Below, piece by piece: positions 30,421-47,920 of a DNA stretch of 64,000 bases. The DNA is taken from positions 124,001 to 188,000 of the forward strand of contig NW_026250405.1 of the NCBI RefSeq assembly GCF_024521635.1, written 5' to 3'. This DNA is from Tricharina praecox (lineage: Eukaryota). A program made the position numbers and the translations under genes. The first letter of the stretch is position 1, and every line of letters starts with the position of its first letter. The notes below the pieces were generated by a model, which was given only the letters and a program-made list of their open reading frames with translations, had not been told where the DNA came from and searched no databases.

Positions 30421-30509
30421 GATGGTGATGGTGATGGTGATGGTGATGGTGATGGTGATGGTGATGGTGATGGTGATGGTGATGGTGATGGTGATGGTGA
30501 TGGTGATGG
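30421..30509. repeat. (GATGGT)14 microsatellite upstream of the bZIP gene
   Basis: Fourteen perfect hexamers at 30421-30504, then GATGG. Confidence 0.97.
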
Positions 30510-36147: not shown

Positions 36148-36219
36148 GTGGGTTTTGTGGGTTTTGTGGGTTTTGTGGGTTTTGTGGGTTTTGTGGGTTT
36201 TGCGGGTGTTGTGGGTTTT
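36148..36219. repeat. 9-bp tandem repeat (GTGGGTTTT) x8
   Basis: Six perfect units, one variant, then one more perfect unit. Confidence 0.92.
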
Positions 36220-36244
36220 GCGTTACCCACACCGGTGAAGCAAA

Positions 36245-36978: not shown

Positions 36979-38919
36979 CTATGCCGCCGTGACAACGGCC
37001 GCGGCGGGGACGGCGGGAGTGGCGACGACGGGAGCGGCGACGGCGGGGGCGGCAACGACGACGTCGGTCTCGGTCGCGGGGACATCGACGACGGGAGTGG
37101 CAGGGTCGACCTCTACCGCGGGAGCCTCAGGCACGACGTCAACGACAGTCGCGGCCTGACGCTTGCCGTTGGTGTAGCGGTAGCCTCTGCCGCTGACGGC
37201 GCCAGTGCGGTGGTGGGAGTGGTCGGAGCCGGAGTTGCGGCTGCCCTGGGTGCGGCAGTTGCCGGCGCACGCGGACTCGTCGCGCTTCTTGTTGCAGCCC
37301 CCATTGTTGGTGCAGCTGTCGCAGCACTCATACGAGTGCGAGTTCGAGCAGCAGCTGCTGTTGCAGCTATTGCAGCAGCCGTTGTTACAGCAGCCGTTGT
37401 TGCCGCAGCACCCGTTGTTGCAGCAGCCGTTGTTGTTGCAGTATGAGTTGTTGCAGCCCTGGCGGCACTCGTCGCGGCACTCATCGCCGCCGCAGCAGTC
37501 GGAGCTGCTGGAGTTGTTGCAGCAGCAGCCGTTGTTGCCGTTATTGCCGCAGCAGCCGTTGTTGCAGCCACCGTTGTTGCAGCAGGAACTGCAGTTATTG
37601 CCCTGGCAGCAGTCCTCGGAGCGCTTCTCGATGGAGCGCTTGGCGGCGGCGCCGCCGCCGAAGAAGTTGCTGAACGACTTCTGCATCTTGGTGAAGACGC
37701 TGGCATCGATGTTCTGGTTGTGATCGATGCTCTGGCTGAACTCGCGGTTGCAGTCACAGCCGCCGCCGTTGCCGTTGCCGCCGCTGAACGGATTGCGCTT
37801 CAAGAGGTCGCGGCGACTGATGCTGAGGTCGTTGTTGTTGTTGGAGCTGCTGTAACTGCAGTTGCTGTTACAGCAGCCTCCGCAGCCACCGCAGCCTCCT
37901 CCATTGCTGCAACACTCCGAGTTGCCGCAGCCCTGTTCGCAGTTTTCGCGGTGACGGCGGCCACACCCATCTTCGTCGTCGTCGTCGTGGTGGATGCTCA
38001 GGTGGTTGTTGTTGTGCGAGTTGTTGCAGTTGCTGTTGCAGCAGCCGCCGTTGTTGCGCTTGGTAAGGCTGTTGTTGTTGTTGTGCTGGTTGCAGTTGCT
38101 GTTGCTGTTGCAGCCGTTGCCGCAGCCGCCGCAGCACCCTCCTCCGTTACCGTAGTTCTCGCTGCAGCCGCAGCCTTGACGACAGTTCTCGCGGTTGTCG
38201 CAGTTGCCGTCGCCGTCGCCGTCGCCGCGGTGGAGGCTAAGGTGGTTGTTGTTGTGCGAGCTGTTGCAGGAGCTGTTGCAGCAACCGCCGTTGTTTCGCT
38301 TGGCGATCTGTGGGCCGATGGCTTTGTTCACTTTGTCGTGAACCTTCGCATTGATGTTCTGGTCGTGATTGATGCTCTGGTTCAGGCACTCCTCGCATCC
38401 ACCGTTGCAATCACGCTTCTGGCAGCCGACGCCGCCGAATGAGCCGAATCCCTTGTGAACCCGGTCGAAAACCTTCGCGTTGATGTTCTGGTTGTTCTCG
38501 ATGCTCTGGTTGATGCAATGATTGCAACTACCGCCGCAGTCACGCTTCTGGCAGCCGGTGCTGGCGGCACCTCCGAGGCCGAAGCCCTTGATGAACTTGT
38601 GGTGCACGTCGGCGTCGATGTTCTTGTTTCCGTCGATGTTCTGGCTGAACATGCAGGTCCGGCACATGTCGCATGCACCGTCGCAATCGCGCTTGTTGCA
38701 TCCGATGCCGCCGATGCCAGATCCCATGTTTCCGAATGCATTCTTGAATTTCTTGGTGAAGAGTTCGGCGTTGATGTTCTGGTTCGTATCGATGCTCTGC
38801 GAGAAATCGCAGTTGCAGTCGTTACGGGCAGCTAGGGTGGCGGCTCCAACATCGGGGGCCGGCGCACCCATCACGGAGACCGCGAGGAGGATGGCGGTGA
38901 GGGTGCTTGGAGCGAACAT
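36979..38919 (-). CDS. Secreted Cys/Asn/Gly-rich repeat precursor with ten KR sites (KEX2-processed repeat protein-like), 646 aa
   Basis: Signal peptide MFAPSTLTAILLAVSVMG-AP; uninterrupted ORF with strong C/G third-position bias; internal repeats delimited by KR; 5'-UTR intron 38978-38920 ending directly at the ATG. Confidence 0.88.
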   Translation of the reverse strand: MFAPSTLTAILLAVSVMGAPAPDVGAATLAARNDCNCDFSQSIDTNQNINAELFTKKFKNAFGNMGSGIGGIGCNKRDCDGACDMCRTCMFSQNIDGNKNIDADVHHKFIKGFGLGGAASTGCQKRDCGGSCNHCINQSIENNQNINAKVFDRVHKGFGSFGGVGCQKRDCNGGCEECLNQSINHDQNINAKVHDKVNKAIGPQIAKRNNGGCCNSSCNSSHNNNHLSLHRGDGDGDGNCDNRENCRQGCGCSENYGNGGGCCGGCGNGCNSNSNCNQHNNNNSLTKRNNGGCCNSNCNNSHNNNHLSIHHDDDDEDGCGRRHRENCEQGCGNSECCSNGGGCGGCGGCCNSNCSYSSSNNNNDLSISRRDLLKRNPFSGGNGNGGGCDCNREFSQSIDHNQNIDASVFTKMQKSFSNFFGGGAAAKRSIEKRSEDCCQGNNCSSCCNNGGCNNGCCGNNGNNGCCCNNSSSSDCCGGDECRDECRQGCNNSYCNNNGCCNNGCCGNNGCCNNGCCNSCNSSCCSNSHSYECCDSCTNNGGCNKKRDESACAGNCRTQGSRNSGSDHSHHRTGAVSGRGYRYTNGKRQAATVVDVVPEAPAVEVDPATPVVDVPATETDVVVAAPAVAAPVVATPAVPAAAVVTAA

Positions 38920-41195
38920 CTACCAACGTGTCAGTGTATGCTTGTGTATGCTTCGAGCAGAGTACAGGAAACACATACTGCTGTAGTAACAATGAATGAG
39001 TTGGACTTAAACGATAGGATGTGCTAAAGATAGTGGACTGCCGTGATGGATGGCCGGGTTGATATGATGTTTCTGCAGAACCGGGGATCTACAACGGTAT
39101 TTATGGTTTTCATTCGGCTGTAGTTTCTCCTCGGTCTTCACGATAATGTGCTCTCGTGAGAAAGAATCGTCTTGAGATGTGACTCCTGACATCATTGCAC
39201 GAGTTGGTGGCCTTCCACAGCGAGGCTTGACCGTCTGCAATGTCGGGACCACAGTCAGTCCCCGTGCCTTCCATCCACGGCCATTGGAGGCGACCATATG
39301 CGCCAGTGATGTGTCGATGTACTCCCGCCGATGAGCAGTTCTGGTTGAGCTGTATCTTCAGGAGGAATATGTCTAGACGTGCATCTCCGCCGTTCTATTA
39401 TGATACCTTCCATTCTCGGCCAGTAGGATCGGTCCCTATGTGTCTGTGCGTCAATGTATCCCACCGAGCAGCAGTTCGAGTCGAGCTGTATCTTCACTTC
39501 CATCCACAACGAGTGAGAGCCGCCGCTATGCATCAGTGCGCCAAAGTATCCGCATAGAGGAGCCCATCGATTCGAGCTGCACCTTCACCAGTGATATCTC
39601 CGGACGTGCACCCGATCAGTTCTCCGAGCCACAACCAGCATAAGCGATCACTACCGTATGCGCCAGGGAGTCTTCGTGCCGATACTCGCTAGTCCAACAA
39701 AGGTGGGGATGGCGGTCGGACCTCGTGTGGCTGAACTTGGCAAAAACTAGTCTAAAAGCAGCCTCACCAGCCATACGAGGTCCGACCGCTGTCCCCCACC
39801 TTTGTTGGAGAAGCAAGTACCTGTGCAGCGAGCAGTAATCCAAGCCCGAGTCCGAGCCGCACACCCACAAAGAGTATCCAAAGTCCGGCCGTGCACCGCA
39901 CGGTCCACACCATCTTGGATTGTTTCAAGGTTAATTCCACTCCAAAGCGCAGCTGTGGGGGGTGCGCAATCATCGCCGTTCTACACGTAGCTGTGGTCTT
40001 ATAAACCTGTAGCTGAAGTGGGCAGCTTTTGCCGTCACAATCCATCACGTTAAGTGAGTCCGTTTTCGGCTCCGACTGCTGCCCATTCTGAGCACTGGCC
40101 ATCTCCGTCCCCGTGCCCCGAAGATAACGAGTGCCTAGATGTTCCCACGTATCAGTATCGAGATCTGCTCGACCCGACCGGCCTGCATGGTCTGCCGTGG
40201 AAAAAGGTCACATGTGGGCAGGGCTGCTATAGATATATCACGGACGGAGGAGCGCTGCAACCTCTAGGAACAACAAAAACAAGCGACTGGAACCGGAACA
40301 AACGTGCAGAGCACGAAAGTAGTTCGAGTCATTTGCTGGGTTAAAGCGCACACCTGCTGGTGATAGATAATACGGACAGAACTTACAACTGTGTCATGGA
40401 TGAAAAAGCCGAGTGATAATGATGATAGATGTGTGATGATCGTTCGTGACTGAAGACATGGTTTGGAAAGCGTGGCTCTGAAGGTTAATATTACCTCAAG
40501 GTCGAGGTTGAGTCATGATCATTTCACCGAGCCATGGAGGATGCTGTCTGCTTGTACGATTGATTTCGACTCAATTGCTATTGTAGGTACATGTATTCAT
40601 CCAAGTTTCCCCAACCCGCCCCGACACGATCCCGTTCCTCGGTGATCACATCCCCCCATTGTAAACGTACAGAAAGAAGTATTCAGAAGAAGACGGAAAA
40701 TATCAGTCGCAGAAAAGAAAAACCCGCAAAACATCCATGCCATCACCGCTCATCGCCGCAGTCAGCCAAAGAAAGAAGAAACAGAAAAGGCAATCATTCG
40801 TCAACAAAAGGACTCTTCGGCCAAGAAGTGCAAGGCACACAACGATAAGGTTGATGATGCTGTACATGTAAAAAAAAAGCTAAATGAGGTTAGTAGTAAG
40901 GTCCAGTTATCCATCCGGAAAACAACAGAGCACCAGACAAAACAAACATTTCCACCCGTTTCCAATGCACCTCCCGCTTCCCAAACACCAAAACAAAACC
41001 CTCCATGATGGCAAACAGATGCAGCCTTCCCATTCCCATCTCCCCAGCTTTCCCACGAACCCAGCCCAATTGATGTCATTTCCGTTTTGACCCCCCCCCA
41101 CCGACCACCCCCCAAACAATCCCAGCCAATACTCCGATACAATGAAAGACAAAAACGCAGAAAGAAAATCAGAGTACAATACCAGTAAATCAGAT

Positions 41196-46842: not shown

Positions 46843-47920
46843 CTACAGCCCACCATCCCCCTGCACGAACCGTGCCAAAAACTCTCCCACCATCTTCCGT
46901 CCCTTCGGCTTTGCTAAGCACTCCACATGCAAAGCTCCCTTGACACTTTCCTCCTCCACATGTACGCCCGCCTTCTTTGCGACCTCCGCAATCCTCGCCG
47001 CCTGCCCGCTCGGAACCAGCTCATCTTTGCCCGCCTCGACTACCAGCATCCGTCCCTTCCACCCCCTCTCTAGAACTATCTCCAACGCCTGAACCAGCTT
47101 CCAACGATTCCACAGAGCAAATCCAAGGTATCTATACGGCAGCCACTTCTGCGGATACAATGCAACGAGCATGTCCTTGATGCTAACGAATGGCGTCTCG
47201 AGGATCAACACGCTCACATTCTGCAGCGGATGTGCTGCCAACCCCGTCAGCGCGATTCCGCACCCAATCGATTGCCCCCACAGGACTACATCCGTCTCCG
47301 CACCCCCATGCTGAGTGCGGATATGCGAGAAGATGGCGGACAGGTCCCGCTCGATGCCGCGCTGCGAGGGCCGCCCGGTCGATGTCCAGTAACCGCGGTA
47401 GGACGGGATCAGGATCGTCGTGGGGCCCCGAGACGGAGGGAGCGAGGAAAACAGGGCAGAGAGGTGCGGGAGCCGGGACGGCGTCGACGAGGCGTTGCTG
47501 CCAAAGTTAGTCTCGCCAGGGCGGATCCGAGGACTCTCCTCACCCCTGGAAGTACACCACCACTAGCTCCCGGCCCCGCACCACCCCGCTCCCGTCCAGC
47601 CTCGCGGAAGCAGTCGCCAGGACAGTCCCGTCGCCTACCGCGATCTTCCCCTCTCGCCACTTTATACCGCGACAGTATGGGGCGTAATCACTGATCTTTT
47701 CTTTGCGAGCGCCGAGCGGGATCCCGGGCATGTAGATGATCCGCGATTGAAACAGGATCATCATGAGACATTTGTAGGACCAGAGGGTCAATGTGAGGCC
47801 GGTGAAGACGAGGGGTGCAAGGAGGAGCGGGGGAATGGCTGAGAGGGATCCTATGCGTCGGTATGGGAGAAATCGCTGGCGGCGAATGCGCAGAGGAAAT
47901 CGAACCAGTGGTGGAAACAT
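46843..47920 (-). CDS. Alpha/beta hydrolase, Bem46/ABHD13-like (exons 47920-47544, 47497-46843)
   Basis: FQSRIIYMP, VYFQG|NASS, SYRGYWTSTGRPSQRGI, nucleophile motif WGQSIG, ILETPF, KDELVP, GALH. Confidence 0.9.

Follow-up and report, generated by a model that had tools for sequence, protein, structure and literature searches.

KEX2-processed repeat proteins (KEPs) of fungi were defined by Le Marquer 2019 (PMC6339444) as proteins with a signal peptide and no membrane anchor that are divided at KR or RR into at least four fragments, at least three of which are similar and cover at least 15% of the length. Rep1 of Ustilago maydis, a 652-amino-acid (aa) precursor, is cut by Kex2 into ten amphipathic peptides of 35–53 aa, which assemble on the hyphae as amyloid-like fibrils (PMC4617103, PMC3133707), while Hum3 joins Rep1-like repeats to a Cys-containing hydrophobin domain (PMC4617103). 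Here we describe P0001, the 646-aa product predicted from the minus strand at positions 36979..38919 of a 64,000-nucleotide (nt) stretch of Tricharina praecox DNA (contig NW_026250405.1), which is called the window below. By its predicted sequence P0001 fits the definition of a KEP sensu Le Marquer 2019: cutting in silico at KR or RR gives 13 fragments in P0001 and as many in an ortholog that we describe below, and the five copies of its main repeat unit, A, make up ~35% of the length, with all 10 pairs significantly similar (BLOSUM62 alignment with shuffles, not FIMO). Very probably, P0001 is a secreted precursor with Kex2-type processing, and its sites of cleavage appear to be of two kinds.

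The coding sequence is a single intronless open frame on the minus strand, running from 38919 to 36979 (646 codons and a stop), and its product holds 101 Asn, 87 Gly and 76 Cys (12% Cys). Its GC content at third codon positions (GC3) of 0.85 is the highest of eight open reading frames (ORFs) compared in the window, the remaining seven lying at 0.56–0.83. Since direct homology searches came back blank or with spurious matches, we used a pattern of the neighboring Cdc20 gene to search metagenome contigs, obtaining five loci. One of them, L004, reaches far enough and carries an intact 653-aa ortholog at L004:12895-14856, in matching position and orientation; L001 and L002 appear to come from the same relative as L004, their contigs ending too early. 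The last two, L003 and L005, represent a more distant fungus (Cdc20 dS, the synonymous divergence, 1.3) with different genes beside Cdc20 on both sides, and hence give no verdict on whether an ortholog is present or absent there. Their Cdc20 is flanked on one side by a long gene of several exons (L003:12617-18254 and L005:1776-7413), which has a P-loop motif and by inspection resembles a helicase, and on the far side by other genes, so that the local gene order is unlike that of the window.

P0001 and its ortholog are identical at 415 of 606 aligned residues and share all ten units in unchanged order, at a dS of 0.50 compared with 0.48 for Cdc20. The ratio of nonsynonymous to synonymous divergence (omega, Nei-Gojobori on this one pair) is 0.33 in units A1–A4 (bootstrap 0.21–0.54), 0.33 in the B units (0.19–0.55) and 0.35 in unit D (0.12–0.98). 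P0001 is a real, conserved gene. This evolutionary evidence for a working gene is stronger support than the sequence reads, where two runs from two studies (X1 and X2), neither recorded as RNA, contain the focal stretch. Both runs look RNA-like, in that a 46-nt CT..AC intron is spliced in a neighboring gene and 39079-40269 is without cover, and the focal gene and its 3' flank are matched with zero mismatches by contigs of depth 3–10 (among the pieces listed, four from X1 and three from X2). As pieces of depth ~3 also map outside genes, and as contigs are unable to rank expression, this cover gives modest support for transcription. Over the AAC-rich stretch 38068-38110, deep contigs match this stretch only and then diverge, with summed depths up to ~880 (X1) and 2950 (X2), which suggests other transcripts, abundant and of low complexity. 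As candidates for the true gene, the long Val/Ala antisense frames were rejected, since the signal peptide, the conserved residues and the signals of promoter and intron all belong to the sense frame; the antisense frame is nearly stop-free in both orthologous genes.

The reading of this stretch as a gene for a secreted polyprotein, made in the original prediction from the letters alone, is supported by the frame and by its signal-peptide-like N-terminus. Hydropathy places a hydrophobic stretch at about aa 6–17, an N-terminal hydrophobic core is present in both orthologs, and the predicted signal peptide would span about aa 1–18 (38866..38919; all units are on the minus strand), with a presumed cut site. 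A pro-region follows (aa 19–32, 38824..38865), whose expected AR end proves to be LAAR in both orthologs, an LxxR-type Kex2 motif (PMC8528282). The repeats start with A1 (aa 33–77, 38689..38823; 3 Cys), which ends in GC-x-KR, A2 (aa 78–126, 38542..38688; 5 Cys, 4 in the ortholog), A3 (aa 127–169, 38413..38541; 4 Cys) and A4 (aa 170–208, 38296..38412; 3 Cys), which ends in IAKR; the counts for A1, A3 and A4 are the same in the ortholog. Then come B1 (aa 209–288, 38056..38295; 12 Cys), rich in Asn, Gly, Cys and His, and B2 (aa 289–375, 37795..38055; 13 Cys), which has an acidic His/Asp patch and a terminal double site ISRR-DL-LKR. A stand-alone A unit, A5 (aa 376–428, 37636..37794; 2 Cys in both species), and the spacer SIEKR (aa 429–433, 37621..37635; SVEKR in the ortholog) lead to unit C (aa 434–546, 37282..37620), with 32 Cys including 12 CC pairs. 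Unit D (aa 547–587, 37159..37281) has 2 Cys in C-x-G-x-C and a basic C-terminal half, and a Cys-free Val/Ala/Pro tail (aa 588–646, 36982..37158) ends the protein.

Alignments uphold the order A-A-A-A-B-B-A-C-D-tail that had been read from the sequence, all 10 A-A pairs scoring z 8–17 (each 0/300 shuffles) and B1-B2 z 17. Unit C shows a weak kinship to the B units (z 3.2–3.4, 1/300 shuffles each; common motif C-x-Q-G-C) and is probably a Cys-expanded B derivative. Excluding KR, the units measure 37–111 aa, a refinement of the 37–110 aa first given, and the description of all peptides as Cys-rich holds for A1–A4, B and C but not for A5, D and the tail, with 2, 2 and 0 Cys. The A units (37–51 aa) are hydrophilic overall (grand average of hydropathy, GRAVY, −0.3 to −0.75) and neutral to acidic (net charge −0.1 to −2.1 at pH 7); a Gln/Asn/Ile motif in the first half is followed by an amphipathic helix in the second, with a hydrophobic moment of 0.40–0.66 in all ten A units of the two species, computed with no shuffle control. 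The tail barely aligns between the orthologs, L004 having [VI]EK[SA]P[VF]-type repeats at aa 570-653 in place of the Ala/Val/Pro tail; from this tail comparison, and from the charged end of the ortholog, a glycosylphosphatidylinositol anchor was judged unlikely. At aa 281-294 of the L004 protein, a 7-residue tandem duplication, possibly an assembly artefact, gives B1 one more KR at its end.

The pair KR occurs at aa 76, 125, 168, 207, 287, 374, 427, 432, 545 and 586, precisely the ten repeat-boundary positions originally given, while the protein has 0 RK, 2 RR and 2 KK. Shuffled versions of P0001 contain 1.07 KR on average and 7 at most, and ten were reached in 0 of 100,000. Conservation of these sites in homologs had been named as a check; the ortholog keeps 9 of 10, and the tenth, LLKR, has become LSER, which is still compatible with LxxR and stands beside an I-x-R-R common to both species. 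Arg is kept at 10/10 KR sites versus 9/18 positions elsewhere. Kex2 prefers an aliphatic residue at P4, accepts LxxR and can take Glu as an alternative at P2 (PMC8528282). Among the 12 basic sites, six have an aliphatic P4 in both species, against an L/I/V/A background of 9.7%, and at a seventh P4 is Ala or Lys; each of these seven sites lies at a block boundary. The others have Cys at P4 (three sites, the A-A junctions), Cys at P5 (one, C-D) or Asn without Cys (one, D-tail). The boundary motifs stay aliphatic-P4 basic despite diverged flanks (IAKR/LGKR, LLKR/LSER), and both orthologs keep a short xKR-S[IV]EKR spacer. What is new here, as far as motifs can tell, is this division into two kinds of site, aliphatic-P4 block boundaries and Cys-flanked A-A junctions.

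The second kind of site follows a Cys logic of its own. The motif GC-x-KR-[DN]-C-x-G-x-C-x2-C occurs three times per ortholog, at the A-A junctions; the N-terminal Cys number two in the A units that have no such junction before them (A1, A5), and the C-terminal Cys is missing from those with none after them (A4, A5). The Cys of A1–A4 are conserved at 14 of 15 positions, and across P0001 four KR sites have Cys on both sides and six on neither (p 0.005, post hoc). Disulfide formation, in the endoplasmic reticulum, precedes the action of Kex2 in the late Golgi. If A1 and A4 left alone, they would carry free thiols, as each has three Cys in both species, whereas one disulfide across each KR gives even counts, save for one unconserved extra Cys in A2 of P0001. 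Thus A1–A4 may stay a disulfide-chained or uncut block instead of becoming free peptides, and either outcome departs from the release of about ten separate peptides that had been expected; of that expectation the Kex2-type polyprotein stands, but the separateness is doubtful, with Cys straddling four KR sites and odd Cys counts in A1 and A4. Tethering of A1–A4 as a disulfide-chained block we consider nearly as probable as its opposite.

The B and C units behave differently from A1–A4 in that 44 of their Cys are shared between the orthologs and 27 are not, the exchange being mainly with Ser, Asn and Gly. This turnover may partly be alignment noise; total Cys is 76 in both proteins, with 17 and 19 CC pairs, while His rises from 20 in P0001 to 33 in the ortholog. 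As Cys positions drift with content kept, composition-driven cross-linking or metal binding suits B and C better than a fixed fold, and a role as cross-linker or metal-binding segments suits them on sequence grounds. The fixed-ratio set of products foreseen at the outset fits the identical number and order of units in both species.

Altogether, we tentatively favor the view that P0001 is a secreted KEP-type precursor with two-tier processing that supplies disulfide-cross-linked surface or matrix material. The chain would enter the endoplasmic reticulum and form its disulfides there, after which Kex2 in the late Golgi would cut the block-boundary sites (LAAR32, IAKR, LTKR, ISRR/LLKR, AAKR, IEKR and, less surely, NGKR) to give the blocks A1–A4, B1, B2, A5, C(-D) and tail. 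Each of the three A-A junctions, and possibly the C-D site as well, has Cys on both sides of KR and would either be nicked with its pieces tied by disulfides or be left uncut. The A units could then act as the surface-seeking, self-associating part, like the Rep1 repellents, while B and C, rich in position-drifting CC pairs, might cross-link the assembly and perhaps bind metals as well. The processing is likely, and what we say of function is reasoned conjecture; a surface or matrix role for the products comes, in our judgment, close to balanced odds. A bolder version, in which Kex2 nicks every A-A junction and a cystine bridge across each KR keeps a covalent A1-A2-A3-A4 chain that co-assembles in fixed ratio with the hyper-Cys cross-linker peptides of the same precursor as a surface polymer unrelated to hydrophobins or repellents, seems unlikely; such catenated units would, if they exist, be a new way of building fungal extracellular material and one example of a wider class of Cys-rich KEPs, most of them unannotated.

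Several points weigh against this proposal. In Coprinopsis cinerea, neither growth nor fruiting was visibly affected when six KEP genes were knocked out (PMC9769878), which calls for caution in functional claims. The conservation statistics come from the one pair of P0001 and L004, and in unit C, where the alignment is ambiguous, omega is 0.79 (0.41–1.57) and purifying selection unclear; Lys shows no contrast between KR sites (9/10 kept) and positions outside them (12/14). As for the tethered block, straddling is less marked in L004, with Cys on both sides at four sites, upstream only at two and on neither side at four (p 0.076), and three of the four straddled junctions are copies of one another, so that an offset duplication register explains the pattern with no need for disulfides across the sites. 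Furthermore, A2 and A3 could each pair four Cys internally, and if C-x-K-R-x-C forms a tight ring, cutting might not take place at all. Structure prediction does not help here: the AlphaFold2 models of the whole protein (one sequence; predicted local distance difference test, pLDDT, 33.5) and of A1–A4 (two sequences; pLDDT 38.5) are both unusable. At this low confidence both give a helix in the second half of the A unit, yet they disagree on the Q-x-I motif, which is a strand in the two-sequence model only, and that model had no Foldseek match at an expectation value (E) of 0.001 or better.

Of the alternatives, a cocktail of free, diffusible peptides acting on other organisms, with the A units as small, disulfide-stabilised amphipathic antimicrobials or effectors, survives best, unlikely as it is. 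Every KR stands at a unit boundary, the A-unit helices are Lys-rich and amphipathic, A2 and A3, with their four conserved Cys each, could close on themselves, and Ece1/candidalysin shows mixed peptides coming from one precursor (PMC7329392). Such a cocktail is hard to reconcile with A1 and A4, which would hold unpaired Cys in both species, with B and C, whose drifting Cys are unlike a fixed disulfide scaffold, and with the omega of A and B, which gives no sign of positive selection. Antimicrobial peptides are mostly cationic, whereas the A units are neutral to acidic.

Extracellular metal binding, with B and C as secreted metallothionein-like chelators that scavenge or detoxify Cu or Zn and the A units as anchor, is the next reading and a rather improbable one. 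The 32 Cys within the 113 aa of unit C, the His/Asp patches in B, the higher His count of the ortholog and the constancy of Cys content under drifting positions all agree with it. However, secretory-pathway Cys are as a rule oxidised, Pfam, metallothionein models included, gave no match, and the neighbors scanned include no metal-homeostasis gene.

After it comes an uncleaved repeat protein, which we regard as improbable. A protease might be unable to enter loops as tight as C-x-K-R-x-C, the two-sequence model gives each A unit a repeat-fold-like strand and helix, at low confidence, and QID74 of Trichoderma is a precedent for a Cys-rich repeat wall protein (PMC13170347). What speaks for cleavage instead is that the aliphatic-P4 motifs persist while their flanks diverge, that the spacer xKR-S[IV]EKR is kept and that KR outnumbers RK ten to zero; moreover, the repeat motif of QID74 is, by inspection, unlike any P0001 unit.

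A precursor of pheromone-like signaling peptides or of a dikaritin-like, ribosomally synthesized and modified cyclic peptide would share the KEP architecture and the XA or XP after two of ten KR sites (KR-QA in both species, KR-NP in P0001 only), but is very improbable, as units of 37–111 aa contrast with the near-identical repeats of 9–24 aa in alpha pheromones (PMC6339444), the A units of P0001 contain no Tyr, no DUF3328 (UstYa) protein matched among 18 selected neighbor ORFs and 85 further stop-to-stop ORFs of at least 75 aa from four intervals of the window between 24.9 and 46.9 kb, where intron-split genes could be missed, and the one HxxHC in the window lies antisense to a transcription factor and was judged not credible; alpha-type pheromone and dikaritin/ustiloxin-type precursors were rejected on these grounds. 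A remainder no larger than this falls to other readings.

The family had not been recognised in the original prediction, and no relative emerged from searches of Pfam, NCBIfam, protein collections, the Atlas or known folds either. Pfam had no family for whole P0001, three parts of it or the ortholog, and NCBIfam none for either protein. Word-indexed homolog searches confirmed 0 of 1186 candidates with aa 1–210 (lengths 355–1131), 0 of 3007 with the A-unit alignment (lengths 94–2000) and 0 of 1489 with the B alignment (lengths 154–2000). A five-unit A profile run with HMMER against 1.84 billion representatives gave two matches, rejected as unrelated long repeats without signal peptide or Cys/KR junctions, which scored at most 7 bits per domain versus 62–81 for true A units. 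The ESM Atlas contains the exact P0001 sequence, with no usable feature match and structure matches at a template modeling (TM) score of 0.34 or lower, and the only match of a PDB sequence search (E 0.8), a zinc finger, was rejected. Locus scans confirmed 0 of 593 pattern matches in metagenomes with the A alignment, 0 of 155 in viral contigs and 0 of 177 in prokaryote genomes. Since L004, from the same metagenome collection, contains the A pattern and was missed, the metagenome blanks are weak, and the blanks are no proof of a narrow range. Motif searches in the supplements of PMC6339444 (four files) and PMC7329392 (three files) found nothing; in the latter, the large table has headings for accessions and types and may lack sequences. 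Full-text searches of a literature set without most subscription papers showed none on P0001 or on KEP repeats chained across cleavage sites. In a 15-billion-protein collection neither P0001 nor its ortholog has an exact-sequence match, although Cdc20 of the window is in NCBI. The gene is probably unannotated, or modelled differently by annotation, and the absence of both orthologs implies that surveys of protein catalogues may under-count such genes.

Upstream of the ATG, and directly adjoining it, lies a predicted 59-nt intron in the 5' untranslated region (38920..38978, minus strand; GTATGT, CTGAC, TAG), whose donor, branch-like and acceptor signals have counterparts at matching places in L004. 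A TATA-like element CATAAATACCG (39095..39105, minus strand) is identical in L004 at 11/11 bases. Three copies of a ~38-nt direct repeat (39323..39587), spaced 136 and 91 and located 400–670 nt 5' of the ATG, correspond to three related copies at L004:12240-12498 and are probable repeated regulatory (promoter) elements. Still further upstream, an imperfect palindrome of ~137 nt (39683-39819), with arms 88–90% complementary and no blastn match in the L004 intergenic region, is possibly a small non-autonomous transposon remnant. An array of (GTGGGTTTT)x8 lies 3' of the focal gene at 36148-36220, and a perfect (GATGGT)x14.8 microsatellite at 30421-30509 near the bZIP gene. The neighbors at 19592-59102 encode a GH1 glucosidase, a GH2 mannosidase, a bZIP factor, Cdc20, a GRDP-like protein, a Zn-dependent dehydrogenase and a C2H2/fungal transcription factor, and no biosynthetic cluster was seen among them; an alpha/beta hydrolase neighbor has an intron at 47497-47544 that is spliced in X1 and X2. 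Fungal transcription-factor domains and intron signals of fungal type agree with a fungal host, and the 64-kb window contains no paralog of P0001.

How, then, does P0001 compare with described systems? With KEPs it shares a signal-peptide-like N-terminus, the repeats separated by KR or RR, the several repeat types and an apparently narrow taxonomic range, and it differs from them in its Cys content, its units of up to 113 aa and the Cys flanking KR. Umemura 2020 (PMC7329392) reports 7878 KEPs, 2560 of them stand-alone, among which precursors with several repeat types are frequent, and allows no separated sequence longer than 100 aa. An orphan KEP with several repeat types is hence unsurprising in itself, and the presence of several repeat classes is less new than first implied. 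Under the 100-aa limit P0001 is borderline, unit C having 112–113 aa in P0001 and 100 aa in L004: it is excluded by the wording of the Results, and not by that of the Methods, which concerns repeated sequences. In the main texts, the word cysteine is absent from Umemura 2020 (PMC7329392) and Vogt 2022 (PMC9769878) and appears in Le Marquer 2019 (PMC6339444) only for two-Cys pheromones and in the abbreviation list.

Rep1 resembles P0001 in size (652 vs 646 aa) and, as far as the units of P0001 are predicted, in its about ten Kex2 products and its amphipathic units; it has one repeat type, though, while P0001 has several classes with up to 28% Cys, and with Pfam blank no sequence link is shown. 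Rep1 repeats are reportedly Cys-poor. Hydrophobins are marked by an eight-Cys pattern with two CC pairs; B1, B2 and C depart from it in their Cys spacings, which also differ between the orthologs, and as Pfam is blank here too, this candidate was rejected. A closer parallel to the putative tethering is offered by the yeast killer toxins K1 and K28, in which Kex2 products are held by a disulfide made before cleavage (PMC12637454). They are non-repetitive alpha/beta heterodimers, however, with no sequence or fold similarity to P0001 found, whereas the link in P0001 would be iterated along homologous repeats. Secreted Cys-rich proteins with combinatorial tandem repeats (SCREPs), which include Trichoderma QID74, matched InterPro in 98.4% of the set (PMC6262176). 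Their repeat and Cys criteria fit A1–A4 and B1–B2, but SCREP work targets uncleaved multivalent domains, while P0001 has no Pfam domain and has conserved cleavage motifs, which argue against a single chain. MiSSP8 of Laccaria bicolor, which hyphal aggregation requires (10.1101/218131), is likewise a repeat protein with kexin sites, but a small one with a short repeated motif. In summary, KEPs are common, and the products described for them in the papers cited here are mostly short, Cys-poor peptides; a 76-Cys precursor with cleavage sites of two kinds suggests that the KEP route may also serve fungi for delivering structural components in fixed ratio, components that possibly stay chained.

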